From: an uncultured delta proteobacterium
GTDB taxonomy: Bacteria > Myxococcota_A > Polyangia > Polyangiales > Houyiibacteriaceae
Direction of reading: 5' to 3'
Length of the DNA stretch: 64,000 nucleotides
Assembly: GCA_963699755.1 (NCBI GenBank)
Contig: CAVOVB010000002.1
Location: 800,001-864,000, forward strand
Shown here: positions 39,004 through 58,746 of the stretch, piece after piece
Position numbering within the stretch: the stretch's first letter is position 1
Layout of the letters: each line of letters starts with the position of its first letter
Notes under the pieces: model-generated
What the model saw: only the letters and a program-made list of their open reading frames with translations
Told to the model about the DNA's origin: nothing
Database searches by the model: none
Translations under genes and position numbers: made by a program

Positions 39004-39010
39004 GAAATCC

Positions 39011-40635: not shown

Positions 40636-40681
40636 TGCCCTCGCTCCGCGGGCTGAAGCCCGCGCGGCCTCGCCGTTCGCG

Positions 40682-40725: not shown

Positions 40726-40743
40726 CGCGAAAGGAGAGTCTCG

Positions 40744-42690: not shown

Positions 42691-42825
42691 GGTGGATCCA
42701 GGGATGGGCCAACAGAAGCACCGTCAAGCCAAGCGAACAATTACGTATAGATTGGTTTGCCCTCGCGTGTTCTGGTGAGCGCAGACATCAGCGAAAACGA
42801 TCCCGCAATGAAGGAGGATGAAAGC

Positions 42826-43782: not shown

Positions 43783-43836
43783 CCGTGGGCCGAGGAGACA
43801 GCTCTCCTGCTTCGGTGAGAGAGCTGCCATCCACGG
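43783..43836 (+). promoter_or_regulatory. Two-stem leader hairpin, copy 3
   Basis: CCGTGG/CCACGG and CAGCTCTC/GAGAGCTG stems, TTCG in the loop. Confidence 0.7.
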
Positions 43837-43858
43837 CACACCAACAAAGGAGAACACC

Positions 43859-44050
43859 ATGAGCACCAAGAAGCACAGCATCTACGTCATCCAGGAAGGC
43901 ACCCAGGGCAAGAGCTACTGGAACCGAGCCGGAGTTGCGTTTTTGAACAAGGACGGGAGCTTCACGTTGAAGCTCGACATCCTCCCTCAGACGAAGTTCC
44001 AGCTCCGCGAGGAACAGCCCGTCACCGAGGAGCATGTAACGGCCGAGTAG
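43859..44050 (+). CDS. Small DUF736-like (putative nucleic-acid-binding) protein, copy 1
   Basis: MSTKKH.IYVI...KSYWNRAGVAF.NKDGSFT.KLDI.P; AAAGGAGA RBS; four copies in the window; family assignment tentative. Confidence 0.8.
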   Translation: MSTKKHSIYVIQEGTQGKSYWNRAGVAFLNKDGSFTLKLDILPQTKFQLREEQPVTEEHVTAE

Positions 44051-44064
44051 CGGCCGGCCCACGG

Positions 44065-44089
44065 CAACCAGGGCGCCCTGCCCCGGTTG
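44065..44089 (+). repeat. CAACCAGGGC hairpin, copy 1 of 6
   Basis: CAACCAGGGC-GCCCT-GCCC(C/T)GGTTG; also at 48090, 51319, 54301, 55774, 58697. Confidence 0.85.
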
Positions 44090-44223
44090 TCGCTCGCACG
44101 CACAGAAAACGCAGAAGCTGCGCCCAGAATCGCCCTGCAGGAAAGAATTACGTATAGCGCGGCGCAATCCGGCGACCCCATGTTGCCTATGACCCCTCTG
44201 TGCGGGTCGGCCGGGGGTTTCTC

Positions 44224-44700
44224 ATGCGGTACTTGATTGGCTTTGTGTTGGCGCTGGCGTCGGTGGCTTCGCCTCTGAGCGTCGGCGCACAAGCCGGTGA
44301 GGAAGCGGTACCGAAGGTTGCCTTGGCTATCCATACGCAGCATCGTCTGCCGCCGCAACTGATGTTGCGGGCGAGCTATTACCTATACCTCGATGCCGAT
44401 GAGAAAGGCCGTTCACGGGTTGAGCAGTGGCACCCTGAAGCTTTCGTTGACCCTTCCGAGCCCGAGCCGACGAGCACGCCAGAGGAACAAGACGGGTTCA
44501 GTCATCCTGTCTACGTTGACCCCGTTTCGGGCGCGCCCTTGGCCGTCCCCGAAGACCCGCAAGTGCCGACCGCGCCACTGAAGGAAGAACAAGAGCGTAA
44601 GAGGAGGCGGCGAATTGGCATCGGGGTTGGCGTCTCCGTTGCTGTCGTTGTTATTCTGGCTGTGGTCGGGGGCGTGGCGGCGGGGCTTCGTGACTTGTGA
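44224..44700 (+). CDS. MRYL-leader exported protein with C-terminal TM anchor
   Basis: MRYLIGFVLALASVASPLSVGAQ; WHPEAFVDP; RRRRIGIGVGVS. Confidence 0.8.
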   Translation: MRYLIGFVLALASVASPLSVGAQAGEEAVPKVALAIHTQHRLPPQLMLRASYYLYLDADEKGRSRVEQWHPEAFVDPSEPEPTSTPEEQDGFSHPVYVDPVSGAPLAVPEDPQVPTAPLKEEQERKRRRRIGIGVGVSVAVVVILAVVGGVAAGLRDL

Positions 44701-44758
44701 GCCACGCCGCGAGGCGGGCGGCACCATGTGCAACGTCGGCGCGTTTGGGACGTAGCAG

Positions 44759-44907
44759 CGCACCCGCTGCGCCCCCACGCCCCAAACGCAAAAGGTGCAC
44801 GCCGTAACCTGAGATTCCCGAACGAAACGGGGCTTCCACCTGGCACGCCTGATGCACCTACGTAGCCGCACTTAGGGGCGCATAACGCCGCAACCGGGGA
44901 GGTTGTT
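44759..44907 (+). repeat. Cassette upstream repeat (box B + sigma54 promoter + RBS), copy 1
   Basis: CGCACCCGCTGCGCCCCCACGCCCAAACGCAAA...TGGCACGCCTGATGCA (44841-44856)...ACTTAG...GGGAGGT. Confidence 0.85.
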
Positions 44908-45342
44908 ATGAAGCTGAAAAGGCTACTTTGGATCGGAGCTGCGCTTGTGACGGTTCCGTTCGCGAGTGGCTGCGGGTACGGGTGTACTGATAGGGGCTGC
45001 TTTGCCGGAATAGAGGTTGCCCTCGTGCCGAGTGTCAGCTCCACATACGACGTCGAGCTTGTTCTGGATGGCGTCGTTGATGCGTTCACATGCATCAAGA
45101 CCGAAGACGGTTGGTCGGTCGGCGACTCGACTGAGGGTGTGCTGTGGTTTGGGTGCGACGGCTCCGGGTTTCACGTACACGCAACTCCCGAAACGTTGGG
45201 GATTTCGGTCGCTGCCCAAGATGGAAGCTGGACGGGGTCCATAAGCGAGAGCCCGGACTACCGGTTTTATCAACCCAACGGAGCTAAGTGCGACGGAGCG
45301 TACGGCTGCGACCAAGCAGAGCTGACCGTACCGAAGGGATGA
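44908..45342 (+). CDS. Hypothetical lipoprotein
   Basis: Lipobox ASGC; YQPNGAKC motif; GGAGG RBS. Confidence 0.8.
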   Translation: MKLKRLLWIGAALVTVPFASGCGYGCTDRGCFAGIEVALVPSVSSTYDVELVLDGVVDAFTCIKTEDGWSVGDSTEGVLWFGCDGSGFHVHATPETLGISVAAQDGSWTGSISESPDYRFYQPNGAKCDGAYGCDQAELTVPKG

Positions 45343-45353
45343 AACTTCAACGA

Positions 45354-45502
45354 CGCACCCGCTGCGCCCCCACGCCCCAAACGCAAACGCTGCGTGTCAC
45401 GCCAAAGGAATCACCAGCAAAAACCGACCCCTCACCGTGGCACGCCTGATGCAGCCTCATCGACCGACTTAGTTGCGCTCTGCGCCTGAACGGGAGGTCG
45501 TC
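45354..45502 (+). repeat. Cassette upstream repeat, copy 2
   Basis: Same box B and TGGCACGCCTGATGCA (45438-45453). Confidence 0.85.
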
Positions 45503-45985
45503 ATGCGGTATTTAGCTGGCTTTGTGTTGGTGGCGGCGTTGGTGGCTTCGCCGCTGAGCGTGGGCGCGCAAGGCGGTCAGGAAGCGCCCGCAGTGGAGCT
45601 TCAAGTGGACGAGGCTGGGGTAGAAGTTGTGCCGAGCCGGCCAGGGACAATTGACGGATACACGCTTGAGGAGATGCAGCTTCGTGTGAAGCGAGCGAAA
45701 ATCGGGCTCTGGAGCACGGCGGGCGCGACCGTCGTAGGGGGCGTGATCATTGGCGCCTGGTGGAATTGCGAGCATCGCGATGAACCGGCGGACGATGCCT
45801 TCTTTGCTTGCCCGGGAGCACTCTTTTCGGGCGTTGCCGTAGGTTTCTCAGGAGCCGTGGGGATGATCGTCACGGGTGCTTTGTTGGGCGCTCGCAAGCG
45901 AAAGCTGCGCGAACTGCAGGAAGCGCACTACGGAACACCGCGCAGAGTCCAATGGGACCTGGCACGGTCGCGGCTCGTGTTCTGA
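45503..45985 (+). CDS. MRYL-leader membrane protein
   Basis: MRYLAGFVLVAALVASPLSVGAQ; two TM segments; ends VQWDLARSRLVF. Confidence 0.8.
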   Translation: MRYLAGFVLVAALVASPLSVGAQGGQEAPAVELQVDEAGVEVVPSRPGTIDGYTLEEMQLRVKRAKIGLWSTAGATVVGGVIIGAWWNCEHRDEPADDAFFACPGALFSGVAVGFSGAVGMIVTGALLGARKRKLRELQEAHYGTPRRVQWDLARSRLVF

Positions 45986-45998
45986 GGGGAGGTTCACC

Positions 45999-46562
45999 AT
46001 GCGGTATTTAGTTGGCTTTGGAGCCCTTCTAGTTGCGTTGGGGACATGGGGAGTAGCGGGGTGCGGGGAGTCGCTTATTCCGTGTGATGATTTGGGAGCC
46101 GGCTGCGCCCTGAGCGATGGCAGCGTGGGCGTGTGCACGCATGAAGGCTGCAGAAAGGAGTCGGGGCCAATCTCGTGCAAACACGGTTACGCCAATCTAT
46201 ACGACTGGGAAGACGGAACTCTCTGCCGGTCATCGGATCTGCGAGAGGGCACGTGTCTCGACGGCGTGTGCGGAGGCGAACACTTCTGCGAAGGCGTCGT
46301 GTGCGACGAACCAGACAACCTCTGCGAAAGCGATCAATTCTGCAACTGGGAGGGGGTCTGCGAGTTCCGGCAAGTTACGAAATGCAACGATCGGAGCGAT
46401 TGCACGTCCGACAAGTGCGATTCTGACGTAGGGTGCGTCTACATCAATCGCCCTAACGGCGCTGAGTGCGTCTTGCCGGGTGCAGACTGGTTCTGCTGCG
46501 GGCTCGGATTAGCTTGTTGCGACTATGGAACTTGCAGGGACGGCGTCTGCATTGATGAGTGA
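45999..46562 (+). CDS. MRYL-leader Cys-rich lipoprotein
   Basis: MRYLVGF...VAGC; CNDRSDCTSDKC-type repeats; GGAGG RBS. Confidence 0.8.
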   Translation: MRYLVGFGALLVALGTWGVAGCGESLIPCDDLGAGCALSDGSVGVCTHEGCRKESGPISCKHGYANLYDWEDGTLCRSSDLREGTCLDGVCGGEHFCEGVVCDEPDNLCESDQFCNWEGVCEFRQVTKCNDRSDCTSDKCDSDVGCVYINRPNGAECVLPGADWFCCGLGLACCDYGTCRDGVCIDE

Positions 46563-46593
46563 CGCCGGTGCGTTTGAGGTGCAGCCGTAGCCA

Positions 46594-46737
46594 CGCACCC
46601 GCTGCGCCCCCGCGCCCCAAACGCAAAGCCTGCGCGCATCGGTAGCGGATTCCACTGCAAAAGCTGGGCTCCCACCTGGCACGCCTGATGCAGTTACATA
46701 GCCGCACTTAGGGTCACGCTGCACCGGGGAGGTCGTC
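46594..46737 (+). repeat. Cassette upstream repeat, copy 3
   Basis: Same box B and TGGCACGCCTGATGCA (46677-46692). Confidence 0.85.
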
Positions 46738-47424
46738 GTGCGGTACCTATTCGGATTCCTGTGCATTTGGGCGTTGGGAGCGGTTGCGCTGGTCGGGTGC
46801 AGCGAGGAAACGCCCCTGCCATTGGAATGCGTGCAGGACGAGGATTGCGATGACGCCAACGAATGCACGGATGATAGCTGCGTAGAGAAGCGGAGATGGT
46901 TCGAAGGGAAGTACTACGGTAGGTGCGAAAACTCTGCGGTTGAATACGGAGAATGTGACTTCGACGGTCTCGACGATGCCCTCGGTGGTCTAGACGGCAT
47001 TTGTGTCGCAGGGGTCTGCGAGAAGAACCCGTGCGATGATGGCAACGAGTGCACCCACGACCTATACGATTTCGAAGGTTCGTGCGACCATATCGGATGT
47101 GGCGGGTGCCAACCCTGCGACCGTAATGGGGAGCCTGGCATCTGCGATGGTGACGTTTGCGCAGAGTATCCCTGCAATGACGGCGTCATTTGCGAAGATG
47201 GTGACCTATGCACCTACGATTTTTGCGATTACACAGACGGAATGTGCGACTTCAATCCGGTGTGTCTCAGCGGTCAATGCAGAGTTGCCTCGTGCGATCC
47301 AACCGATGGGTCATGTACCTTCACTCCGGCGCCAGACGGAACGCCGTGCTCCTGCGGGGGCGTGATCTGCATTTGCCCCGGCACTTACGTCTGCAGCAGC
47401 GGCGCTTGCGTATGCCAGCTCTAA
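46738..47424 (+). CDS. MRYL-leader Cys-rich lipoprotein with CDDGNECT repeats
   Basis: (V)RYLFGFLCIWALGAVALVGC; CDDANECTDD, CDDGNECTHD, CEDGDLCTYD. Confidence 0.82.
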   Translation: MRYLFGFLCIWALGAVALVGCSEETPLPLECVQDEDCDDANECTDDSCVEKRRWFEGKYYGRCENSAVEYGECDFDGLDDALGGLDGICVAGVCEKNPCDDGNECTHDLYDFEGSCDHIGCGGCQPCDRNGEPGICDGDVCAEYPCNDGVICEDGDLCTYDFCDYTDGMCDFNPVCLSGQCRVASCDPTDGSCTFTPAPDGTPCSCGGVICICPGTYVCSSGACVCQL

Positions 47425-47807
47425 AGGGAGGCACGCGACGTGGGTGCGTTTGAGGCGCAGCCGTAGCTCTCGAATAGCGGCGCTTGCTCGGGGTTGAGCG
47501 GCCTCATCTCCGCCTCGCATGTACATCAATCGCGGTTGCGGCGCCGCCGCCGGCAGAGTCCGATCGGCCGAGCGCGTGACATCGCTGTGAAGCGACCGTC
47601 CGTGTCGGCGACCCCTCTCTGGTCCAGCCTGCCGATGTGTCCCTCGGGCTCTGCCATGCCTCCAAAGGTCTACTCCGTGCGCCCTGCGTTCTCCCAAGCC
47701 GTGCGCTCCCTTCCCCGCTCTCACGCCCTACACTCTCGCAACCGAGTGCCAGCGGAGCTGTCACAGCGTTTGCCAAGGTTCCAGTTGCTTCGCGGTGAGC
47801 GCGCCGG

Positions 47808-47862
47808 CCGTGGGCCGAGGAGACAGCTCTCCTGCTTCGAGTGAGAGAGCTGCCATCCACGG
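47808..47862 (+). promoter_or_regulatory. Two-stem leader hairpin, copy 4
   Basis: Near-identical to 43783-43836. Confidence 0.7.
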
Positions 47863-47884
47863 CACACAAGAAAAGGAGAACACC

Positions 47885-48076
47885 ATGAGCACCAAGAAGC
47901 ACACCATCTACGTCATCCAGGAAGGCAACCAGGGCAAGAGCTACTGGAACCGCGCGGGGGTTGCGTTCTTGAACAAGGACGGGAGCTTCACGTTCAAGCT
48001 CGACATCCTTCCTCAGACGAAGTTCCAGCTTCGCGAGGAACAGCCGCTCGCCAAGGAGAAAGCCGCCGCCGAGTAG
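47885..48076 (+). CDS. Small DUF736-like protein, copy 2
   Basis: MSTKKHTIYVIQEGNQGKSYWNRAGVAFLNKDGSF. Confidence 0.8.
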   Translation: MSTKKHTIYVIQEGNQGKSYWNRAGVAFLNKDGSFTFKLDILPQTKFQLREEQPLAKEKAAAE

Positions 48077-48176
48077 CGGCAGCCCGCGGCAACCAGGGCG
48101 CCCTGCCCTGGTTGCCGCGGGGCCTCCATGAACTTAGGCCTTCACCTGCGATCCTCCGTTTGATACGATCGTTCCG

Positions 48177-48392
48177 ATGCATTTCCTGGAGTGGGTCGAA
48201 GAAGCGGAGTCGCTGCTCAGGCGCGATGGCGTCTGGCCCGATCAAGACGACGTCCGCGCTCGCGGTGTGCTTGAGGAAGCTGCCCTCCGAGGCCCCGAGC
48301 CCCTCGTCCACGCCGTCCGCGCGCTACGGCGGGACCAAGAGCTTTGCGAGACGGAGCTCCGCACCCGCCAGCGATCCTCGGCTCCTTCTTGA
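48177..48392 (+). CDS. Leaderless 'WVEEAES' small protein, copy 1
   Basis: Paralog of 54391 and 55868; TGATACGAT 7 nt before ATG. Confidence 0.7.
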   Translation: MHFLEWVEEAESLLRRDGVWPDQDDVRARGVLEEAALRGPEPLVHAVRALRRDQELCETELRTRQRSSAPS

Positions 48393-48412
48393 AAGGCCCT
48401 GAGCACTAGGAC

Positions 48413-48440
48413 TTGACATCACGCATTTTCACCCTATTCT
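48413..48440 (+). promoter_or_regulatory. sigma70 promoter of TA operon 2
   Basis: TTGACA-16 bp-TATTCT in an AT-rich patch. Confidence 0.6.
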
Positions 48441-48463
48441 GAGTGATAGATAATGTGATTTTG

Positions 48464-48814
48464 ATGCAATTCCGCGCCTTCATCGACGACAACCACTTCT
48501 CTCCTTCGAAGATTGCCGAGGCCCTGAGAACGACGAAAGGCGAGATCTCGGAAACCCTCGGACTCGCCTCGGATGCGTTGACGCGGCGGCAGCGGATGGA
48601 GGCTGTGAAGACGCAGACCCGGCTTCGAGAGATGCTCGAGATCCTGAACCGCGTCGAGTCCGTGACCGGATCGCTCCTCGGAGCTTACGCGTGGTTTCGC
48701 TCGGAGCCGCTCCCTGGGTTCGGGGGGCAGACGCCCGATCAACTGGTTCGTGCGGGCAAGGCCAGCCAAGTGCACGCCTATCTCGATCGGGTGATGGCGG
48801 GTGGCTACGCATAG
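48464..48814 (+). CDS. Xre/MbcA/ParS-type antitoxin
   Basis: QTRLREMLEILNRV...AYAWFRSEPLPGFGGQTPDQLV. Confidence 0.88.
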   Translation: MQFRAFIDDNHFSPSKIAEALRTTKGEISETLGLASDALTRRQRMEAVKTQTRLREMLEILNRVESVTGSLLGAYAWFRSEPLPGFGGQTPDQLVRAGKASQVHAYLDRVMAGGYA

Positions 48815-49343
48815 CTGGGGAATCCGGTTTCAGGGATCGGTCTACCGCGCACACAATCCCGAATGGGCGTGGGATCCACTGTCAGGTGCGGGCGCCAAGC
48901 TCCACGGGGGTCGCTTCAACCGTCGAGGGCGTGCTGCGCTCTACACATCACTCGACGTGCTGGTCGCCGTGCGGGAGGTGAGCCCCCTCGGTGCGCCCTT
49001 TCATCCTCTGACCTTGTGCCAGTATCGGGTCGAGTGCGAAAACGTCTTCGATACCCGAGACCCCAAAGCAATGAAACGCGAGAAGGTTTCCGAGGATCAG
49101 CTCGAGTGTCCGTTCTGGAATCAGGAGATGCTCGAAGGGCAGGTCCCGGCATCGCATCGACTCGCCGAACGCCTCATCGAAAGAGGCTATGCCGCCATGA
49201 TCGTCCGTAGCTTTGCGGACGGCGTCGGTCCTGAGGATATGAATCTGGTTCTCTGGAAGTGGACGAAGCGGCGGCCCCACAGGATCATCCTCTTCGATCC
49301 CGATCGTAGGCTTCCGAAGGATGGCTCCTCGTGGAGGAAGTAG
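48801..49343 (+). CDS. RES-domain toxin
   Basis: YRAHNP.W...SGAGA..HGGRFN....ALYTS...REV...VRSFA...NLVLW. Confidence 0.88.
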   Translation: MATHSWGIRFQGSVYRAHNPEWAWDPLSGAGAKLHGGRFNRRGRAALYTSLDVLVAVREVSPLGAPFHPLTLCQYRVECENVFDTRDPKAMKREKVSEDQLECPFWNQEMLEGQVPASHRLAERLIERGYAAMIVRSFADGVGPEDMNLVLWKWTKRRPHRIILFDPDRRLPKDGSSWRK

Positions 49344-49522
49344 GGGTTATTGGCGGGCTTGTCTGGCACTTGGAAGACGACTGCGGCCGCGGTCGTGGCG
49401 GAGAAGCGTCGGGGCCCGCGGGAATGCCCCTCTTGCAGAGCTCGATTTGGATAGGGCTAGGCATCGCCTCCAGTTCGGGGGGGACGAAGCCGATCTTTCG
49501 TTCTACTCTCCGCGGGGAGCTC

Positions 49523-50335
49523 ATGATGTTTCCCGCCCCAAGACCCTTGGCCGAGGACTTCGGTCGTACGGAAGTGACCATCGATGGCGCCACCAAACCC
49601 GTTTGGCGAAGTGGCAACGGTCCCGGCGTGGTCATCATGCACGAGGTGCCAGGCATTACGCCTGAGGTGGCGCGGTTCGCCCGGATCGTGCGCGACCGCG
49701 GGTTCACCGTGTTCTTGCCGGAGATGTTTGGGACGGTCGATAAGCCGGTGAGCGGTGGGTACGCGATCGCTTCGATGCTTCACTGCTGCATCTCGCATGA
49801 GTTCCACGTTCTCGCGGCAGGCGGGTCTAGTCCCATTACCGACTGGCTCCGCAAGCTCTGTCATCAAGTGCATGAGGAGCTCGGTGGACCTGGGGTCGGT
49901 GCCCTCGGCATGTGCATGACCGGCAATTTCGCTCTTGCGCTGATGGTTGACCCTTCCGTTATGGCTCCCGTGTTGTCTCAGCCCTCGCTGCCTTTTCCGT
50001 TTGGAAAGAAGCGCAGCCGTGCGATTCACGTTTCACCCGAGCAGCTTGAGGCGATCAAGCGACGCGTGCGCGAAGAGAATGTCAAGGTGCTGGGTCTTCG
50101 GTTCACGGCCGATCGAGTCTGCACCCGCGCTCGTTTCGAGACGCTTCGCCGGGAGCTCGGCGAGGGATTCGAGGCAATCGAGATCGATTCCGGACCAGGC
50201 AATCCCTGGGGAATCAAGCAAATCGCGCACAGCGTCCTCACCGAAGAGCTCGTCGATGACGATGGGCATCCAACGAAGCAGGCGCTCGATCGCGTGCTCG
50301 GATTCTTCGAAGAGCGGCTCAGAGCGTCTGGCTAG
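49523..50335 (+). CDS. Dienelactone hydrolase family protein
   Basis: MHEVPGITP, GMCMTG (Cys nucleophile), LSQPS, AHSVLT. Confidence 0.85.
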   Translation: MMFPAPRPLAEDFGRTEVTIDGATKPVWRSGNGPGVVIMHEVPGITPEVARFARIVRDRGFTVFLPEMFGTVDKPVSGGYAIASMLHCCISHEFHVLAAGGSSPITDWLRKLCHQVHEELGGPGVGALGMCMTGNFALALMVDPSVMAPVLSQPSLPFPFGKKRSRAIHVSPEQLEAIKRRVREENVKVLGLRFTADRVCTRARFETLRRELGEGFEAIEIDSGPGNPWGIKQIAHSVLTEELVDDDGHPTKQALDRVLGFFEERLRASG

Positions 50336-50744
50336 CCAATATCGTCGCGTTGCGATGTGAGAAGATTCGGGACTAGCCCGCATCGTCGTGTCGGGATTGT
50401 GCCCACTGTAAGCCAGGCGTACGGCACGATTCTCGGGGTCTTCGCCTCGGACCGCCTCGACTGCATCGGCCACTTCCCTCACAAGCAAGGGAACGACGAA
50501 GTCCCCGGCTGGGTCCGCTCCGGCGCGAACTTCGATCTGAAACGCTTCGAGCTTCTTTGGGAGCGCGTCGCCAATTTCGTCGCGGCGCAGAGGCAGGCAA
50601 CGGTCACCGAGGAGGCATCGCCTCGTCCCGAGTCTCCCGCGGCTTGAGAGCTAGCTGCTCCACAGCTTGTCCGAAGGCGGTGCCGATCTTTTGATTGGTC
50701 CAATGCGCTTCGCGTGTAGCACGACAATGCCGTTCGCGACGTCG

Positions 50745-51012
50745 GACCGGCGCCCGCTCGCGGGTACGAGCACGCTCTTCTCCGGCCTCAGAGGCACCGG
50801 CAAGACCATGGCCGCCAAGGTGATCGGACGGACGCTCGAATTGGACGTCTATCGAACGAATCTCCCGGAGGTGGTCTCGAAGTGGGTTGGGGAGACCGAG
50901 AAGAACCTCTCGCGAATGTTCGCCCACGCGCAGCATAGCAAGGCGCTCTTGCTCTTTGACGAGGCTGACGCGCTCCTCGGGAAGTGCACATGAGTCTCTG
51001 ACGCGTACGACC
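50745..51012 (+). pseudogene. AAA+ ATPase internal fragment
   Basis: LFSGLRGTGKTMAA...VVSKWVGETEKNL...LLFDEADALLGK, then a stop, then VSDAYD. Confidence 0.8.
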
Positions 51013-51118
51013 CCCTCGAAACGCGCAGACTCACGAAAGAGGCTGAGCATGAATGGCCACGCGGCCCTCCGTACCTGTGCCCATATCGGATCGTCGTTGG
51101 GCTCGAACACCGCCCCCG

Positions 51119-51304
51119 CGCACCAAGAAGCACACCATCTACGTCATCAACACCACCGATAACGGCAAGAGCTACTGGAACCGCGCGGGGGTCGCCTTCG
51201 GGAACAGGGACGGGAGCTTCACGTTCAAGCTCGACATCTTTCCTCAGACGAAGTTCCAGCTTCGCGAAGAACAGCCCGCTACGAAAGCGGAGGCCGCCGA
51301 GTAG
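51119..51304 (+). pseudogene. DUF736-like copy 3 with the original start and leader lost
   Basis: GAACACCATGAGC replaced by GAACACCGCCCCCGCGC; rest of ORF intact; in frame with ATG 51053. Confidence 0.7.
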
Positions 51305-51561
51305 CGCCCTGCCCGCGGCAACCAGGGCGCCCTGCCCTGGTTGCTTGCTCACACGCATAGAAACCGAGGCGCACGTCCTGCGCGGTTTTCGGCCGACCGG
51401 TGAAAAGTCCAATCGTTCTCAGGAGCCGTCTCGTCGATGGAGGCGCAACCTTTGCGTACGCGAAATAGCTAAAGAATTACGTATAGCCACAGGTCCTACG
51501 GCGACCCAAGTCGCATTGTGTGACCGGCCCGAGCCGGCCGGGTGCAAGCGGGGAGGTTGTG

Positions 51562-54198
51562 ATGCGCTACTTATTCGGATTCCTATGTGTCTGCGCGCTC
51601 GGAGTGATGCCCTTGGCTGGGTGTACTGAGAGCAAACAAGAGCCGGACCTCGAGTGGCCGCCGAACGCGACGGTGTACTTCGATCAGTACGGCATCCTGA
51701 GCGCCGACTGCGCGACCGACGAAGACTGCGCGATGGTGATCGGCTACTACCACGCCGCGGATCGGTTCGTGCAGATGGATTTCCGGCGGCGATTTGCCAC
51801 GGGTCGGCTGACCGACATCATGGACAAGGCCGTCGCGCAGGTTTTCGGCGTCGCCGAGATTGCCGCCCAGAGCCGTGCTCTCTTTTCGACGCGTGATGGG
51901 CAGCCGGTAGAGGAGTTTGTCCTCTCGCGAGCATCGGACAAGACCATCGCGATGCTGGAGGCATACAGCGCGGGGGTCAATCAGTGGATTGACGACGTGC
52001 GCGACGGAAACAATGGAGCCGTTTTCCCCCGCGAGTTCGATGCCCCGTTATTCGTCTACGGCCCGGACGACATCCCCGAGTGGACCCCGCAAGACAGCAT
52101 CGCTGCAGTACTGGCCGCCATTGACCGAGAGTCCAACTTGGAGGACTACGAAGCGCTGGCGGGGGCCGCACGCGAGGCGATTCAGGACGACGATCGGTTC
52201 TTCGATCTATGGGCTACCCGTCCGCTCCCATCATCGATTCTTCCTCCGGGCTGGATGCCGGGAGCTTCTCAAGAGTCTTCTGCAAAGGCGCCGCCAATCA
52301 CCAAGCAAGAGCCCCAAAGTAACTCTCTTCATGCGGGTCGAGCGCTTCAGCGTCTCCACGACCGCCTGGCGCAAACGGAAGAGCTCTTCGGATCGATTCT
52401 CGGCACCGGTCTTGAGGGCGGCTCCAACAACTGGGCGATTGCTCCCTCACGGAGTGGGACGGGGAACGCTCTATTCGCTGCGGACGGGCATCTCAGGTTG
52501 AGCCAGCCCACCGAATGGTATTTCGCGCATCTCGATGCAAGAACGCACGGAAGCGGACAGCTCCACGTAGTTGGAGGGACCTCGGCGGCTTTACCATGGG
52601 TCATCTATGGTCAGAACGAGGACATCGCATGGGGATCGACGAGAACCTTTCTTGATATGAGCGATCTCTACATCGAGGAGCTCGCCACGGATGCGGAAGG
52701 CGCTCCAATCGGTGTGCGGTTCGAGAACGAGACGGTGCCGTTCACGCGGGTATCCTTCACTGTGACATTCAATGATGGAAGCACCGAAGAGCACGAGCTC
52801 CTCTTCGTCCCCCACCATGGGCCCGTGCGCGAGATCGACCTGGCCAACGGTGTCGCCGTCACACTTCGTTGGACGGGAAGTGATACCGATACGGACATCG
52901 AGTATCTGGGGGCGTTGAATGCAGCGGAAAGCGTGTTGGAAGCCCGAACCGCACTTGAGAACTCTACGACGCGAGGAGCCAATTTTGTGGTCATCGACAC
53001 CGAGGGCAACATTGGCTGGTTTCCCTACAACCGCGTCCCCAAACGTACCTGGGCAACGGATCTCCTCGGTGAAGCCCATCCCATGCTGCCGCTCGACGGC
53101 CGCTGCGAGACTCCAGAGCGCTGCTACGAATGGACCGAGTACTTCGCTTACGATGACCTTCCGCAAGCCTTGAATCCGAGCGAGGGCTTCATCGCCACGG
53201 CCAACAACGATATGACGGGGCACCTATTCGATGGTGACCCGACCAACGACGGCTATCCACCCTTGCAGACCGTACTCCCTATCCTTGGTGCTCGCCACAC
53301 TCGTATCGTAAGCCTGATCCAAGAGCTCGGCTCAGAGCAGACTGCAGAAACGATGCATCAAATTCAGCATGACACCTATTCGCTGCTCGCCGAGCGCATG
53401 CTGCCAAGCTTCATCGAAATCGCGGAGTCCGACATGACGACGTTGACAGAAGCGGGACAGAAGGTCCTGAACGCCCTCAAGTCGTGGGAATCGCTCACCT
53501 GCCCGACGGGTGTCGATGGCTACTACATGGACTCTCCGCTCACGGACGATTCCCGGGAGCTTCTCGAGTCGTCTGGTTGTGCCGCATTTCACGCCGTCTA
53601 CTACAAGTGCGATCTGGCGCCGAGGAATCAACCCACGTTCTACCGCTGGCTGTACTTCTACTCCGTGTATGATCCGAGCCGACTGCGTAGAGGGGATGTA
53701 TATTGGGATGATCCCGGCACTCCGGAAGAGGAGACGAAGTATCAAGTGATCGAGGAGTGCTTCGACCAGGCAGGGCGCTTGCTCATCGACGACCTCGGCC
53801 TAGGGAACGACGAGACGAAGTGGGTGTGGGGGCGCTTGCATGGGCTTGTTCTGACCTCCGATCTCGATGCCTTTCTTCAACCGCAGTACAACAACCCGCC
53901 TCCCGGCGGCACGCTCTTTGCGAACTCGGGTGGAGCTCTGACCATCAGCCCAACCAATCCTTCGTTAGGCTCATCTGGTTTCGTTCAGCGAAATGGCTCC
54001 GTGCAGCGCCTGATCTGCGAGGCGCTGCCGACAGGTCCGAGCTGCACCGTCGAGGTGCCAGGGGGGCAGTCCGGCCACATCACCTCGGAACACTACGACG
54101 ATCTGCTGTTCAAGTACCTCGATGGTGAGCCGATCGACCTGCCCTTTGACATCGACGAGGCGAAGGCCAACGCGGTGAGGACGGTCACCTTCGAGTAG
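51562..54198 (+). CDS. MRYL-leader penicillin acylase-family (Ntn hydrolase) lipoprotein
   Basis: MRYLFGFLCVCALGVMPLAGC; GYYHAADRFVQMD; GGSNNW autocleavage site; PGGQSG. Confidence 0.92.
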   Translation: MRYLFGFLCVCALGVMPLAGCTESKQEPDLEWPPNATVYFDQYGILSADCATDEDCAMVIGYYHAADRFVQMDFRRRFATGRLTDIMDKAVAQVFGVAEIAAQSRALFSTRDGQPVEEFVLSRASDKTIAMLEAYSAGVNQWIDDVRDGNNGAVFPREFDAPLFVYGPDDIPEWTPQDSIAAVLAAIDRESNLEDYEALAGAAREAIQDDDRFFDLWATRPLPSSILPPGWMPGASQESSAKAPPITKQEPQSNSLHAGRALQRLHDRLAQTEELFGSILGTGLEGGSNNWAIAPSRSGTGNALFAADGHLRLSQPTEWYFAHLDARTHGSGQLHVVGGTSAALPWVIYGQNEDIAWGSTRTFLDMSDLYIEELATDAEGAPIGVRFENETVPFTRVSFTVTFNDGSTEEHELLFVPHHGPVREIDLANGVAVTLRWTGSDTDTDIEYLGALNAAESVLEARTALENSTTRGANFVVIDTEGNIGWFPYNRVPKRTWATDLLGEAHPMLPLDGRCETPERCYEWTEYFAYDDLPQALNPSEGFIATANNDMTGHLFDGDPTNDGYPPLQTVLPILGARHTRIVSLIQELGSEQTAETMHQIQHDTYSLLAERMLPSFIEIAESDMTTLTEAGQKVLNALKSWESLTCPTGVDGYYMDSPLTDDSRELLESSGCAAFHAVYYKCDLAPRNQPTFYRWLYFYSVYDPSRLRRGDVYWDDPGTPEEETKYQVIEECFDQAGRLLIDDLGLGNDETKWVWGRLHGLVLTSDLDAFLQPQYNNPPPGGTLFANSGGALTISPTNPSLGSSGFVQRNGSVQRLICEALPTGPSCTVEVPGGQSGHITSEHYDDLLFKYLDGEPIDLPFDIDEAKANAVRTVTFE

Positions 54199-54211
54199 AA
54201 GGAGGACTGCG

Positions 54212-54280
54212 ATGGAGTCGCATCCAGAGGGCACGATGTGCGACCTCGGATCGTTTGAGCGCCAAACCGACGAGCCCTAG
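54212..54280 (+). other. Choice-of-anchor-Q-like tail remnant, possible 22-aa mini-ORF
   Basis: AGGAGG RBS then MESHPEGTMCDLGSFERQTDEP*. Confidence 0.55.
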
Positions 54281-54390
54281 CGCTGGAGCGTAGCCCACGG
54301 CAACCACGGCACCCTGCCCTGGTTGTCTGCCAGGGCCGAAGAGCCCCTTGACCCTTCTCCCAAGATCTTCGCTCTGGTACGATCGAGCCC

Positions 54391-54600
54391 ATGGATCTGT
54401 CGGACTGGGTCGAAGAAGCGGAATCGATCCTGCGATTGGACGGCTTATGGCCGGAACAGGATGAAGAGCGAGCTCGAGGCGTTCTCGAGGAAGCGGCATT
54501 GCAGGGTCCCGCGGCCGTTACTCAGGCGATCTACGTGCTTCGGCGAGAGCTGAGGGAACGAGGCCGAGGCGTTCGCGATCAAAGCGTCCCCTGCAGATAG
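54391..54600 (+). CDS. Leaderless 'WVEEAES' small protein, copy 2
   Basis: TGGTACGAT 7 nt before ATG. Confidence 0.7.
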   Translation: MDLSDWVEEAESILRLDGLWPEQDEERARGVLEEAALQGPAAVTQAIYVLRRELRERGRGVRDQSVPCR

Positions 54601-54758
54601 TAAATTCAAACGCCCTTTCGGCTTCGTGCGCCAGGCGACATAACGTCTAGTACCGCATCCCGACAGGCTAAGAGAGTTGGTGAAGGGCAAAACGGCAGCT
54701 CTCCGGGGACTTGCGCACCAGCAGGCTAGATTTGCCCAAGTGAAAGTAAATCTCTACA

Positions 54759-55589
54759 TCAGTCACCGGCGAAAGGCGGGTCACCGGGCGCGCGGTACTT
54801 GTCCAAGGGACTGCGCACGGCGTCACTGCCATAGTACCAACCGTTTCCATCGAGCTCTTCGAAGAGAAGGTGCATGGCGGAGCGCGTGCCCTCTTCTGGT
54901 GACTTCATCCCGAGGTCGGCGGGCGACTTGCCAGAGGACTCGGCGTAGGGCCGGGTCAGGTCTGTCTCAATAAACCCGGGCGTACATGCGTTGATGCGCA
55001 GCGAAGGGTGATTCTGCGCAAGGCACATGGTGAGGCTATTGGCGCAAGCCTTGGAGAGTCCATAGGCGTCTGCCTCGTCGCCGGCTTTGACTGCGGCGCT
55101 CATGAGCGCGTCGATGGCGCCCCACTCCACCTTCGGGTCCACAAAGAACCTTTGTTTGTCCTGATCACATTTGGCCACGTACATGGGCCCGGAAGCGGAT
55201 GTGATGTTCACCATGCGCCCCGAGCTTTTGTCGAGCAAAGACAGGAAGGAGTCGCTCACGCGTTTGATGCCGCGCACATTCACATTGAGTACGGTCTCAA
55301 GCGCGTCCGAACCGAGCCCAATGCCCGCGTTGTTGACGATGCCGTAGAGCGACTCCCCATTCACCGCTGCCTTTACTTGCTCCGCCGCTGCCGCCACGGA
55401 GTCGTCGCTTGCCACATCGAGCGCCACCACCTGCACTCGGTCGGAAGCGATGGTCTCACAAGCCTTCTTGCCGCGTTCCGCATCGCGAGACCCCAGAAAA
55501 ACGAAGGTATCATCGTGATTTCTTAAAATGGCCTGCACAATGGCGAGGCCGATTCCTTTGTTTGCTCCGGTTACCAAAATCCTTCGCAT
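54759..55589 (-). CDS. SDR oxidoreductase (carbonyl reductase-like)
   Basis: TGANKGIG, NNAG, YGLSK, PGFIETD; AGGAGG RBS. Confidence 0.92.
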   Translation of the reverse strand: MRRILVTGANKGIGLAIVQAILRNHDDTFVFLGSRDAERGKKACETIASDRVQVVALDVASDDSVAAAAEQVKAAVNGESLYGIVNNAGIGLGSDALETVLNVNVRGIKRVSDSFLSLLDKSSGRMVNITSASGPMYVAKCDQDKQRFFVDPKVEWGAIDALMSAAVKAGDEADAYGLSKACANSLTMCLAQNHPSLRINACTPGFIETDLTRPYAESSGKSPADLGMKSPEEGTRSAMHLLFEELDGNGWYYGSDAVRSPLDKYRAPGDPPFAGD

Positions 55590-55867
55590 ATCATCCTCCT
55601 GGAGTCAGAGGGGTACGAACTCCTCGAGCGAACCGCAAGGCCATGCACAAGATCCGGATCTTATTTCGCAACGGTCTTGCGAGCCGCGTCCAGATACGGG
55701 CGGCACCACGTGCGATGTCGGCGCGTTCGAGCGGCAGTCGGACGACCCCTAGCGCTAGCGCGCAGCGCACGGTCAACCAGGGCGCCCTGCCCTGGTTGTC
55801 TGCCAGGCCCCGTCGAAGAGCTTCTTGGCTCGTCTCCCAAGATCTTCGCTCTGATATGATCGTACTC

Positions 55868-56098
55868 ATGGATCTGGCGGACTGGGTCGAAGAAGCGGAG
55901 TCGCTCCTACGAAGGGACGGCCTACGGCCCGAAGAGGATGAAGAGCGAGCTCGAGGCGTTCTCGAGGAAGCGGCATTGCAGGGCCCCGCGGCCGTCACCC
56001 AGGCGATCTACGCGCTGCGAAGGGAGCTTCGCGACGCAGATCGACGCGTCCGCGGCCAAAGTGCGGCTGCAGGGTGGAAAACATTTCGCTGGCCATAG
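55868..56098 (+). CDS. Leaderless 'WVEEAES' small protein, copy 3
   Basis: TGATATGAT 7 nt before ATG. Confidence 0.7.
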   Translation: MDLADWVEEAESLLRRDGLRPEEDEERARGVLEEAALQGPAAVTQAIYALRRELRDADRRVRGQSAAAGWKTFRWP

Positions 56099-56163
56099 AC
56101 AAGGGGGCATTGCGCGGAGAGGATCTCGAAGATCTTCTCGCCGACGGGATACCGCCTCCACTC

Positions 56164-57312
56164 ATGAACGACGCATTCCATTCCGAGTATCCATCGATCG
56201 AGCACCTCCGGGAAAAGGCCCGAAAGCGCATGCCGGGATTCGCGTTCGACTACCTCGAGAGCGGTTGCAATTCCGACATCAACCTCGCGCGCAACACCGC
56301 GGACATCCGCAAAGTGCAATTGCGCCCGTACTACATCGGCCACTATGCGGGATCGAGTCTTCGGACCGAGCTCTTCGGGGTGAGCTACGAGGCCCCCTTC
56401 GGCATCGCTCCGATCGGTTTGCAGGGGCTGATGTGGCCAAAGGCGTGCGAGATCCTCGCCAAGGCCGCCCATGAGCACAGGATCCCCTTCGTCCTGAGCA
56501 CGGTGGGCACCGCCAGCATCGAGACGGTCGCCGAGCTCACGGAGGGACGCGCCTGGTTCCAGCTCTACCATCCCGCCGAGGACGAGCTGCGCGACAAGCT
56601 TCTCGAACGCGCCGCCGAGGCCGACATGCCGGTTCTCGTCATCCTCGCCGACACCCCGACCTTCGCCTATCGCCCGAGGGAGATCCGAAACGGGCTCTCC
56701 ATCCCGCCCCAGATGAATCTCCGCAACGTCCTCCAGATGATGACCCATCCGACCTGGTCGTTCTCGCAGCTCTTGGCCGGGGCTCCGGAGTTCAAAACGA
56801 TGCTCCCCTACCTTCCGAAGGGCCTGAGCATGAAACACCTCGGCCTCTTCATGAACCAGACGTTTTCCGGCCGACTCAACGAGGACAAGATCAAAGCCAT
56901 CCGCGACAAGTGGAAAGGCAAGCTGGTCGTGAAGGGCATCGTCACGGAAGAGGATGCCGAAAAGGTTCTCGCGCTCGGAGCGGACGGCTTCATTTGTTCC
57001 AACCACGGTGGGCGCCAACTCGACGCCGGGCAATCCACGATCAAGCCGATGACCGAGCTCGCCAAGAAGTACGGGGACCGGACCACGGTGATGATGGACA
57101 GCGGCCTGCGTTCCGGGCCGGACGTGGCCTGCGCGTTGGCAAGCGGCGCGAAATTCACCTTCCTCGGCCGCTCCTTCATGTATGGGGTCGGCGCCCTTGG
57201 AAAAGATGGAGGCTTGCACACCATCACGATGATCAAGCGCCAGCTTCAGCAGGTCATGGAGCAGTTGGGATGCGAACGCGTCGAGGACTTCCCCAAGCAC
57301 CTCATTTCGTGA
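56164..57312 (+). CDS. FMN-dependent alpha-hydroxy acid oxidase/dehydrogenase (LldD-like)
   Basis: AFDYLESG, WFQLY, VVKGI, SNHGGRQLD, DSGLRSG. Confidence 0.92.
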   Translation: MNDAFHSEYPSIEHLREKARKRMPGFAFDYLESGCNSDINLARNTADIRKVQLRPYYIGHYAGSSLRTELFGVSYEAPFGIAPIGLQGLMWPKACEILAKAAHEHRIPFVLSTVGTASIETVAELTEGRAWFQLYHPAEDELRDKLLERAAEADMPVLVILADTPTFAYRPREIRNGLSIPPQMNLRNVLQMMTHPTWSFSQLLAGAPEFKTMLPYLPKGLSMKHLGLFMNQTFSGRLNEDKIKAIRDKWKGKLVVKGIVTEEDAEKVLALGADGFICSNHGGRQLDAGQSTIKPMTELAKKYGDRTTVMMDSGLRSGPDVACALASGAKFTFLGRSFMYGVGALGKDGGLHTITMIKRQLQQVMEQLGCERVEDFPKHLIS

Positions 57313-57398
57313 GCGGATAGGGTTCGGAGGAGGCTGGCGCCTGATTGTCGGCCCTCACGTACAAGGCGCATTGAACCCGGCGCGGGACATGCCCCCCT

Positions 57399-57839
57399 TC
57401 AGAACACGATTGCCACAGCGCTCGTGCCGGACCGGTCAAAGGAACGATTAACCTGCCCCGCCGACACGCCCAGGGCCACGCCGACAATCAGAGCAGCAAC
57501 ACCAAGGGAGACGCCCACTCCGATGGCCACTCGCCGCCTACGCTGCTGCGCCTCCTCACGCTCGAGCTCTTCGACTGTCGGTGGTGCAGTTGGCGTCACC
57601 TCCAGACTGGCAGAATCGACCTCCAGCTGTAGCTCTGGCTGAGGCGCAGACTTGGTGGGGTCCACGAAGGCTTCGGGATGCCAACGCTCGAGGCGCGATC
57701 GGGTCGGCTCAGCCGATTGCACTGGCTTCTCCGCATTGGGCTCGGCCGACTTGCCTTCCGCTTCCGCTTGCGCCCCAACGCTCAGAGGCGAAGCCGTCAG
57801 CCACGCGAGCACGCACATCGATCTGAATAGGTAAAGCAT
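57399..57839 (-). CDS. MRYL-type-leader exported protein with C-terminal TM anchor
   Basis: MLYLFRSMCVLAWLTASPLSVGAQ; WHPEAFVDP; RRRRVAIGVGVS; GGAGG RBS. Confidence 0.75.
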   Translation of the reverse strand: MLYLFRSMCVLAWLTASPLSVGAQAEAEGKSAEPNAEKPVQSAEPTRSRLERWHPEAFVDPTKSAPQPELQLEVDSASLEVTPTAPPTVEELEREEAQQRRRRVAIGVGVSLGVAALIVGVALGVSAGQVNRSFDRSGTSAVAIVF

Positions 57840-57956
57840 CACAATCCCTCCGATTGCGCCCGCCCGTATCGAGTCGGTCACATGAGGCAAGTTGGGTCGC
57901 CGGGCGGCGCCGAGCCATACGTAATTCTTTACTTGCCAAGCGATGGCCCGCGCAGC

Positions 57957-57991
57957 TTTTGCGTTTGGGGCGTGGGCGCGCAACGGGTGCG
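57957..57991 (-). repeat. Box B, inverted copy 4
   Basis: Minus strand CGCACCCGTTGCGCGCCCACGCCCCAAACGCAAAA, followed by AATTACGTAT (57926-57917). Confidence 0.8.
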
Positions 57992-58491
57992 CGGTGCGGA
58001 GCTCGCCATCCTCGTCCAAGGCCGCGTGGAGATCGAGGGGGTGCGTCACATGCCTGGAGGTGAGCTACCCCATACGGTGCCACCGCTACCTGCAATACGC
58101 TTGACCCCGGCGGGAGGGGCACGACGATGTCGGAGCCGCCGTGGCCGTCGTCGAGAGAGGTGAAACGCTCGCCGTCAATAGATAGGGGGAGAGCCAGACT
58201 CGCTGCTTCGGACTCGACGGGTAACGGCGCGCTTCCATGGCTTTGTCCTTTTTGCCGTTTGCGGCGAAAAGGGCATCAGGAACGGCTCACGCTCTCAGTG
58301 GTGCAAGTTGCGTTCCTCCCAGATTCGTATGTCTTTCCATAGCGCGGAGCCGTTGCCGGATGCAGGATGCGCGTTCGCTCGTTGGTGTTGCACAAGTCCT
58401 GCGCGAATCGCGGAGACAAAAAGGATCAAACTAGACTTGTACGGGTGTCGGCTCCTGAGATCGGCTTGCTCCGTTCCCCTAGTCTCGCGGC

Positions 58492-58680
58492 ATGAGCACC
58501 AAGAAGCACACCGTCTACATCATCGAGACCAGCGACAAGCGCAAGAGTACCAAAACCGCGCGCGGTCGGCTTCGAGACCAAGGACGCGAGCTTCGCGTTC
58601 AAGCTCGACGTCTTCCCATAGACCAAGTTCCAGCCTCGCGAGGAAAAGCCCGCCGTTCAAGAGGAGGTCCTTGCCGAGTC
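58492..58680 (+). pseudogene. DUF736-like copy 4, frameshifted with a nonsense codon
   Basis: MSTKKHTVYII...; frame shifts before KDASFAFKLDVFP*TKFQ; hairpin follows at 58697. Confidence 0.8.
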
Positions 58681-58746
58681 ACTGCCGGCCTCCAGGCAAC
58701 CAGGGCGCCCTGCCCTGGTCGTCTGCCAAGTTTCGGGCCGCGGGTC

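Follow-up and report, generated by a model that had tools for sequence, protein, structure and literature searches.

Conserved DNA segments that recur beside differing genes are familiar from several bacterial systems. The attC sites of integrons measure 57-141 nt, are imperfect and contain bulged bases, and the pdif sites of Acinetobacter are 28-bp XerC/XerD sites found on plasmids in alternating orientation. The CUP repeats of IncN plasmids bear promoters, stand before different genes and are possible recombination substrates. Downstream of cdiA and rhs genes stand orphan toxin-immunity modules, 5'-truncated remnants in tandem that retain a conserved segment and probably enter through homologous recombination. 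In the erp genes of Borrelia burgdorferi, recombination has repeatedly linked a conserved promoter, operator and lipoprotein leader peptide to a variety of unrelated mature parts, and the resulting proteins are co-expressed and co-localised (PMC10016077). Here we analyse a 64,000-nt stretch of DNA (the window; positions 800001-864000 of contig C2) from a metagenome-assembled genome (MAG) of an uncultured Polyangiales genus, referred to as G000 (5.35 Mb in 11 contigs), in which an array of repeated modules and exchangeable genes extends from 43783 to 58721. This array is probably a co-regulated island of secreted-protein genes, diversified by duplication and by homologous and illegitimate recombination. 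A description of such an array was not found in limited, keyword-bound literature searches, which are not proof of absence.

Ten units assembled from seven recurring modules were listed in a preliminary description made from the letters of the window, and a survey by repeat finding, open reading frame (ORF) listing and direct reading recovered all of them in place, far beyond what chance would give. The modules are D (a small ORF with a structured leader), H (a 25-nt hairpin), W (a second small ORF), B (a box of paired palindromes), P54 (a sigma-54-type promoter), PA (a second promoter-type region) and T (a short tail remnant). Two features had been overlooked: the coding region of the signal peptide (MRYLxGF), which is a module in its own right, and the operator CGCA-N5-TGCG, which is common to B and PA. 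Genes were called with a codon-bias script, and functions and regulation are assigned from motifs alone.

Of the 55 genomes of the genus, 9 contain these modules with reshuffled cargo, as do 119 stretches of metagenome sequence. Genes and modules were mapped in seven array pieces and in one further genome (G060), and the same blocks come in different orders, for example D-H-PA-F9-MBL, F1-F5-F8, F6-T-H-W-glyoxalase and CarbReg-T-D-H. The expectation that related loci would keep the modules around different cargo was thus borne out, since both module order and cargo differ among species. Exchange of cargo between conserved flanks, which had also been proposed, can be followed at several points. 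The slot between a signal peptide and T-H-W is occupied by an F6 beta-helix gene in G005, by a gene for penicillin acylase in G000 and by one for an unrelated protein of 399 aa in G020. On the left side homology stops some 70 nt inside the ORF, and on the right it is regained in the final 17 codons of F6. The occupant in the window is a penicillin-amidase-family lipoprotein (51562-54198, + strand; PF01804, E 5e-123) with a MRYLFGFLCVCALGVMPLAGC signal peptide, preceded by a PA core at 51472-51487. A second case is cassette E (46728-47498, + strand, 771 bp), which consists of a ribosome-binding site, a gene for a Cys-rich lipoprotein (46738-47424) ending in TAA, and an in-frame T remnant (47437-47467). 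With positions 143016-143785 of G005 it shares 97.5% identity, against 79-87% for other aligned blocks of these two genomes, and the identity reaches from the shared ribosome-binding site to about 30 nt past T. In G000 the cassette lies behind B-P54 and in G005 behind H-PA. Signal peptides are also swapped. The mature protein of cassette E carries a MRYLFGFLCIWALGAVALVGC signal peptide in G000 and G005. In G023 its homologue has the signal that belongs to gene 45999, the lipobox being the point of the break, and is followed by a longer T stump. Cargo B (44908-45342, + strand), a lipoprotein, has the signal MKLKRLLW in G000 and MRYLLGF in G020 and G060. The block 44107-44745 is 89.6% identical to G020 229262-228620, where it stands in another context, and a D-H-PA-signal peptide-F6-T repeat is still present twice in a row in G020. 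In G023 an array (C8:185-225 kb) lies between the F22 and F21 genes, which are adjacent in G020 (C1:210-213 kb) with an array to one side, and copies of H are found on two further G023 contigs. From this gene order, the array or part of it appears to have changed place between the two genomes.

A mosaic of this kind might also be produced by chimeric metagenome assembly across repeats of co-occurring relatives, a possibility that the preliminary description had itself raised. The contamination of the G000 MAG is estimated at 9%, modules that are nearly identical occur in related species, and contigs from metagenomes end at the edges of modules. The joints recorded for these contigs are short-sided (21-30 nt) or contain unknown inserts, and relatives are their probable source. 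However, the same architecture is present in eight other MAGs, some of them on contigs of 400-720 kb, as well as in the 119 metagenome stretches, and the stop codon ahead of the T remnant in cassette E is also found in G005. In addition, short contigs from four sediment runs cross the junctions B-P54-cargo C-cargo (45356-46074), cargo-T-B (46112-46596), B-cargo E-T (46582-47464) and T-D leader (47437-47867) at 99-100% identity. No circular junction, excised circle or empty site was seen in these contigs, which are suited to local junctions and not to circles, empty sites or long-range order. The runs may come from the source sample, in which case their support is independent only in method. 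Taken with the other genomes, they make an assembly artefact very improbable.

The units that carry cargo share a set of expression and export signals. B consists of two CGCA-N5-TGCG palindromes located 41-50 nt upstream of a good sigma-54-type site. On the + strand, a B box from 44759 and a TGGCACGCCTGATGCA site at 44841-44856 precede cargo B; a B box from 45354 and a TGGCACGCCTGATGCA site at 45438-45453 precede cargo C (45503-45985, MRYLAGF signal), to which a Cys-rich lipoprotein gene (45999-46562) is translationally coupled; and a B box from 46594 and a TGGCACGCCTGATGCA site at 46677-46692 precede cassette E. The consensus for sigma-54 has GG at -24 and GC at -12, in the form TGGCACG-N4-TTGCW. 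The three copies of TGGCACGCCTGATGCA in the window are identical, fit this consensus at 11 of 12 positions and are thus predicted sigma-54 promoters with the correct -24/-12 spacing. Another candidate, GGCGACCC, was rejected as a sigma-54 site, its spacing being 2 nt too long. An rpoN DNA-binding domain is encoded at C6:133496 of G000 (E 1e-66). The 34-nt pattern of the B box has seven matches in the genome, four of them in this array. A TGGCAC-N5-NTGCW site follows 41-50 nt downstream of six of the seven, including three outside the window, all of which precede lipoprotein genes of the MRY or MSY type. The palindromes of B are accordingly placed for, and predicted to be, activator or operator sites. 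Consensus scans at the modules gave no sigma-70-type promoter and no T-tailed terminator.

The other promoter type was defined from 44 signal-peptide genes in nine arrays, which are served by either of the two promoter types or by direct translational coupling. Its consensus reads [CGCA-N5-TGCG] ... AAGAATTACGTATAGC ... GGCGACCCCACGTT..ATGACCGG.CCGGGAGGTTGTCATG. One example in the window is the PA region 44107-44223 (+ strand), with an operator CGCAGAAGCTGCG at 44110-44122, the core AAGAATTACGTATAGC at 44143-44158 and then a ribosome-binding site, ahead of cargo A (44224-44700, + strand), a protein of family F1 that has a signal peptide as well as a membrane anchor at its C-terminus. A further copy lies in the inverted cassette (57399-57992, - strand), where a B box (57949-57992) and a PA core (57914-57929) precede an F1-family cargo (57399-57839). 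In G000 the core occurs at 14 sites with up to 2 mismatches. A start codon can be called 60-142 nt downstream at 8 of these 14, and at +74 for three of the four in the window. The genes behind these cores include secreted proteins and SRPBCC genes at other loci. A PA core precedes SRPBCC (polyketide-cyclase-like) genes at 42736-42751 of the window and at C3:470694 of G000, with the start 60-74 nt downstream, which indicates that the motif marks a wider gene set than exported proteins. Many cargo proteins share the N-terminus MRYLFGFLCVCALGVMPLVGC (the MRYLFGF peptide), which is a signal peptide of the lipoprotein type and recurs on genes at C1, C2:366 kb and C6. MRY-type lipoprotein genes with B-P54 or T lie at C2:366-368 kb, C3:3 kb, C6:0-3 kb and C10:17-18 kb. 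In the C10 locus (17359-20208), a B-box/sigma-54-type cassette with an MSYLLGF lipoprotein gene stands about 700 nt from the gene of a 436-aa tyrosine recombinase (18898-20208). It is the sole place in G000 where such a cassette was seen so near a full-length integrase gene.

T had been described as a tail remnant, which holds, and its origin can now be specified. Intact F6 beta-helix proteins of related arrays end in ..RPxxxxxxCDVGAFEVQP, and all four of four examined match the NF041518 model for the choice-of-anchor Q domain at their C-terminus (56-69 bits; cut-off 25 bits). Intact genes with a CDVGAFE-type ending are also present elsewhere in G000. The five copies in the window are truncated at the 5' end and lie on the + strand at 44694-44755 (CEPRREAGGTMCNVGAFGT, out of frame with cargo A), 46561-46591 (DAGAFEVQP), 47437 (in cassette E), 54212-54277 (..GTMCDLGSFERQTDEP) and 55676-55752 (SCEPRPDTGGTTCDVGAFERQSDDP). 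They keep 9-25 codons and are out of frame or behind a stop codon, which marks them as gene stumps, and by the domain match T is what is left of the 3' end of beta-helix genes of the choice-of-anchor-Q type.

B, P54, PA, the signal peptide and T are all used elsewhere in the genome, so that they belong to a dispersed gene set and are not specific to this locus. Their motifs identify them as putative parts for expression and targeting, not as dedicated recombination sites, and the proposal that the modules form a dedicated recombination platform gives way to one of promoters, operators, a lipoprotein signal and gene remnants that also serve other loci. The cargo itself had been called unrelated. 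This holds for much of it, although cargo A shares 44% identity with the inverted cargo at 57399-57839 once the signal peptide is set aside, and there is a weak relationship between the two Cys-rich cargos (E 3e-4).

The explanation that we favour can be put as a sequence of events. The array would be a lineage-specific, hypervariable island of exported-protein genes in which two kinds of unit are interleaved. The first kind would comprise genes for lipoproteins and secreted enzymes, each with the operator CGCA-N5-TGCG (single, or paired as a B box), a promoter that is either the sigma-54-type TGGCACG-N4-ATGCA or the AAGAATTACGTATAGC type, a ribosome-binding site and the MRYLFGF signal, many of these genes being followed by the beta-helix stump T. 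The second kind would comprise D-H, in which a structured leader precedes the gene for a small beta-protein and a highly stable hairpin lies at its 3' side, and W, a gene for a three-helix protein. The ancestral repeat was likely D-H-promoter-signal peptide-beta-helix gene-T, from which duplication, deletion, inversion and replacement of gene bodies may have made the present mosaic. Conserved segments would have acted as homology arms, the other crossover often being illegitimate, and exchange would have included transfer between species without need of a dedicated recombinase. The outcome would be a set of proteins that are differently equipped, commonly regulated and commonly exported. We infer both the regulation and a RecA-type mechanism, and consider it most likely that ordinary recombination, without a dedicated cut-and-paste enzyme, was responsible for the reshuffling.

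The absence of a neighbouring integrase, noted in the preliminary description, was corroborated. Pfam scans covered the ORFs of 24.6-64 kb of the window and of 60 kb of G005, 40 kb of G020 and 40 kb of G023, and in these four arrays no recombinase or transposase family was matched, save for a small HTH_23 ORF in G023. None of the 22 matches to PF00589 in G000 lies in C2:800-864 kb. The edges of the remnants are scattered: five D stumps begin at codon 3, 5, 12, 25 or 30, with H still 3' of each, and T keeps anything from 9 to 25 codons. This speaks against the suggestion that breakpoints coincide with module edges, for which scattered edges had been set beforehand as a refuting observation. Together with block ends that fall at ribosome-binding sites, lipoboxes and T, and not at H, these edges weigh against a dedicated site-specific system.

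Whereas the promoter and signal modules and T recur elsewhere in G000, D, H and W appear from the searches to be the array-specific modules. The D ORF encodes 63 aa (MSTKKH.IYVI....GKSYWNRAGVAF.N.DGSFT.KLDI.PQTKFQLREE) and is present in three intact or near-intact copies and one frameshifted copy, all on the + strand. The first unit has its structured leader at 43783-43858 and its ORF at 43859-44050; the second (47606-48076) includes a conserved upstream region and the leader, with the ORF at 47885-48076; a remnant, D' (51120-51304), is without the leader and the first 2 codons; and D'' (beginning at 58492) has no leader and is frameshifted. The leader forms a conserved hairpin with a terminal CUUCGG loop, and the predicted fold of the protein is a four-strand beta meander with a predicted local distance difference test (pLDDT) score of 82. 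Its best fold match has Z = 4.2, to single beta-propeller blades, and is not meaningful. A profile search returned at least 1,624 representative proteins at E<=0.001. Among 55 sampled members of this superfamily, 53 fall in no Pfam family and a single one shows overlap with a helix-hairpin-helix domain. D had been compared to DUF736, which could not be sustained. It has no Pfam match even at E<=10, none of the 55 sampled members matches DUF736 (PF05284) at E<=0.01, and the protein atlas gave a lead of 0.75 only. A 71-aa homologue of D (33% identity, housekeeping-type) lies upstream of a ComEA-like helix-hairpin-helix gene at two near-identical loci of G000 (C1:1649534-1649695 and C7:351878-352027), and this duplicate may be due to MAG contamination or be a real second copy.

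W is represented in the window by three ORFs of 69-76 aa on the + strand: W1 (48177-48392, 71 aa), W2 (54391-54600) and W3 (55868-56098). The fold predicted from the W2 sequence with a family alignment is a three-helix bundle (pLDDT 82). W1 has a TGnTACGAT-like -10 element 7-9 nt ahead of the ATG and no Shine-Dalgarno sequence, by which the W gene looks leaderless. D and W each have more than 100 clusters of close relatives, all of them annotated as 'hypothetical'. In PHROGs, D has one weak match of unassigned function (E 0.005) and W has none. W3 overlaps by 25 nt the annotated start of a gene for a flavin mononucleotide (FMN)-dependent alpha-hydroxy-acid dehydrogenase (56074-57312), the true start of which may lie further downstream.

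H is a 25-nt hairpin (CAACCAGGGCGCCCTGCCCTGGTTG) with a perfect 10-bp GC-rich stem, a 5-nt loop and no T tail. Its six copies in the window all lie on the + strand, at 44065-44089 (one mismatch), 48090-48114 (exact), 51319-51343 (exact), 54301-54325 (two mismatches), 55774-55798 (exact) and 58697-58721 (one mismatch). In the second copy the stem extends to 17 base pairs, and its folding energy is -45.3 kcal/mol (z -5.4). Sites with at most one mismatch per arm number six in the 5.35-Mb genome, all of them here, against none in the reversed genome. H was found in 9 of the 55 genomes of the genus, with no hit for the reversed pattern in any of the 55. A search of one genome per prokaryote species returned exact H at 27 loci, all of them in 8 MAGs that bear the labels Polyangiales, Polyangiaceae, Myxococcales or delta proteobacterium. 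H lies 14-20 nt past a stop codon, and in most cases a promoter module comes next. Each of the 7 genomes with array-type D (multi-copy and clustered) carries H, and W is present in 10 of the 55 genomes, 8 of which carry H. Reading the aligned flanks of 33 array copies by hand, we find D on the left of 26, T of 5 and something else of 2, and on the right PA at 16, W at 10 and something else at 7. In 80 metagenome copies all combinations of left and right partners are seen. In 19 variant copies, covariation amounts to one compensatory double change and three wobble-compatible changes, with about eleven disruptive single changes. In the reading of a co-regulated island, H would act where the preceding gene ends, as a terminator, an insulator or a hairpin bound by protein.

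Several observations weigh against the favoured reading and are best told together. Exact copies make up 30 of the 49 H copies in 9 genomes, and in 24 D-H units of 8 genomes the mean pairwise identity of H is 0.96, compared with 0.867 at codon position 3 of D. A simple terminator need not conserve its loop as well as its stem. The H copies on a contig share one orientation, the exception being G023, where 1 of 10 copies, on another contig, has the opposite sense, and the varied partners of H are also what a recombination site would show. In the same 24 units the codon positions 1, 2 and 3 of D are 0.925, 0.925 and 0.867 identical and the last 50 nt of the leader 0.83, as against roughly 79-89% in the other blocks that align G000 with these genomes. 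Conservation of the D unit as a whole thus exceeds that of its flanking genes, which would call either for gene conversion or exchange or for a constraint acting on the DNA itself. Neither D nor W has an informative match in Pfam (at E<=10, as above), PADLOC, PDB, Foldseek, VIA-align or the protein atlas. Finally, the favoured reading does not account for the near invariance and uniform orientation of H, nor for the above-background conservation of the D unit. For this reason a cassette system based on H is kept as a live minority reading.

In such a system H would be the site of action of a recombinase whose gene lies elsewhere, or else of D, W or the 105-aa CxxC protein encoded beside the array. 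Segments between direct repeats of H would be excised and reinserted at other H sites, and the whole would be an analogue of integron or dif-module arrays that does without an integrase. The inverted arms of 9-10 bp around an asymmetric centre of 5-7 nt have the layout of a recombinase core site, and besides its invariance, orientation and changing partners, H is restricted to arrays, always remains with the adjacent end when D is truncated, and co-occurs with D and with W (8 of the 9 H-bearing genomes have W). Toxin-antitoxin pairs lie inside the arrays, as they do in large chromosomal integrons. However, no recombinase is encoded in or beside the four arrays and no primary site is found elsewhere in the genome. 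The blocks shared between species are not bounded by H, their edges being at ribosome-binding sites, lipoboxes and T stumps (46728-47498 and 44107-44745), and the sequence to the right of H diverges at differing points, directly after GGTTG or after TCTGCCAGGG. H also sits between a stop codon and the next promoter, as a terminator or 3' stabiliser would, and the whole D unit, not H alone, is about 90% conserved. On balance we regard excision and reinsertion at H as distinctly unlikely. A new cassette platform, in which a 25-nt directional hairpin marks the 3' end of mobile units and D, W or an unlinked recombinase acts on it, would accordingly be a long shot. If true, it would be a new mobile-cassette mechanism that would let a predatory or saprophytic myxobacterial lineage swap secreted enzymes between species.

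The left flank of the array bears on a different possibility, namely that the locus is a decayed mobile element, either the accessory or leading region of an integrative and conjugative element or a series of tandemly accreted elements, with RadC, DUF3768, Xre/RES, SRPBCC, the 105-aa ORF and D-H as its repeated backbone and everything else as cargo acquired with time. The DUF3768, Xre/RES and RadC families are common on mobile elements. The left border, made up of DUF3768, Xre/RES, a 90-aa ORF and RadC, is syntenic in G000, G005, G020 and G060, and the border genes and an adjoining lipase-like gene were not found in the three H-less genomes searched (G008, G014 and G011). In G000 this border contains an Xre/ParS-RES toxin-antitoxin pair (39002-40203) and, as its last gene, a RadC-like JAB gene (40744-41199, + strand; PF04002, E 5e-28). 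A second copy of the RadC 3' end follows at 42495-42684 (+ strand), a 190-bp direct repeat of 41004-41193 with 86% identity in blastn. The repeat encloses a 1.3-kb segment with a DHDPS-family gene on the opposite strand (41293-42543, identified with Pfam), and this segment looks like the joint between two copies of a repeated border block. Beyond it come the PA-like core already mentioned (42736-42751), its SRPBCC gene (42775-43254, + strand) and the 105-aa CxxC ORF (43339-43656, + strand). SRPBCC and the 105-aa ORF recur in G005, where the block RadC'-SRPBCC-ORF105-D-H is present four times, three of them with D-H. The G023 array that separates two genes adjacent in G020, the patchy distribution over 9 of 55 genomes, the toxin-antitoxin pairs and a defence-gene fragment inside the array would all suit a mobile element. 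Against it, the Pfam-scanned ORFs (24.6-64 kb of the window and 140 kb of the arrays of three relatives) include no integrase, relaxase, conjugation or phage structural family, the 64-kb window has no tRNA gene, and D has no relative in the viral contig collection. The guanine-plus-cytosine fraction of 0.58-0.64 is not distinct from the 0.60-0.68 of the rest of the window. D types are moreover common to species at matching positions, and the IQEGTQG type comes first after the left border in both G000 and G005, which points to long residence in the chromosome. We therefore hold a decayed mobile element to be unlikely, though not far-fetched. Synteny with the H-less G014 amounts to one gene shared in 60 kb and does not set the borders of the island.

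Within the array, other genes lie between the modules. A further pair of an Xre/ParS-type antitoxin and a RES toxin is encoded at 48443-49343 (+ strand); PF09722 scores 36 bits (cut-off 24.5) and PF08808 87 bits (cut-off 23.2), which identifies a type II RES/Xre pair, while the NCBIfam subfamily models score under their cut-offs. Xre/ParS-RES pairs are also present in the related arrays of G005, G020 and G023. The ORF at 50667-50993 (+ strand) is closest to the anti-phage AAA ATPase IetA/IteA (PADLOC E 2e-15; NCBIfam IteA E 9e-13), and since it spans only about 70 residues of the AAA domain it is a gene remnant inside the array. An SDR gene on the opposite strand (54759-55589) starts directly beside the T remnant at 55676. 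In the left border, an Rfam miRNA model is matched on either strand (E 0.009 and 0.018) by a stretch of some 76 nt (40666-40741) that lies between RadC and the 90-aa ORF; this stretch is accordingly a long near-perfect palindrome and not a miRNA. Apart from this spurious match, an Rfam scan of 40-60 kb at E<=1 returned nothing.

Comparison with known systems returns to integrons first. Like an integron or a cluster of attC sites lacking an integrase (CALIN), the array combines unrelated genes, a conserved hairpin in one orientation at the 3' side of genes, internal toxin-antitoxin pairs and no nearby integrase. However, it has no IntI gene, and H is a 25-nt near-perfect hairpin that follows some genes only, in contrast to the long attC; this comparison was made without an attC model. 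The cargo has sigma-54-type or PA-type promoter motifs of its own, unlike cassettes that depend on a common promoter, and its blocks are not bounded by H, so that the analogy to integron arrays drawn in the preliminary description is a loose one. Acinetobacter pdif modules are moved by the host XerC/XerD and resemble the array in that modules are shuffled between short sites without a recombinase of their own, toxin-antitoxin modules being common among them (PMC13141974, PMC6449649, PMC5790767). H differs in its symmetric arms, its direct orientation, its chromosomal location and the lack of a second H-like site elsewhere in the genome. The CUP repeats lie in the leading region of conjugative plasmids, whereas the present repeats lie on a chromosome and before genes for exported proteins. 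Compared with the cdiA and rhs orphan modules, the conserved segments here are signal peptides, promoters and 3' tails, the cargo consists of hydrolases and small secreted proteins, and a toxin-immunity logic was not detected in the array cargo. Each of these four systems resembles the array in single features, and the array lacks those of their defining features that were compared.

By analogy, the closest known pattern appears to be that of the Borrelia erp/UHB lipoprotein family (OspE/OspF/Elp, named for the 'upstream homology box' and carried on cp32 prophages). The likeness lies in a fixed operator, promoter and signal before unrelated cargo, with breaks at the lipobox; it is a likeness of evolutionary pattern, and homology of sequence is not expected. 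The array differs in being tandem and chromosomal, and not one allelic site per prophage, and it has two promoter types (one of them sigma-54-type), the additional modules D, H and W, and the 3' stumps T. Two unannotated small-protein families, D and W, and an unusually conserved hairpin are also provided by the array, and their function is directly testable. To our knowledge, such a pattern of a constant kit and a changing body has until now been documented mainly for Borrelia surface lipoproteins. The array would show how an uncultured lineage of sediment myxobacteria diversifies its exported enzymes and surface proteins, and a fixed promoter, operator and signal kit joined to replaced protein bodies, as in the erp genes, may be seen as a bacterial counterpart of exon shuffling.

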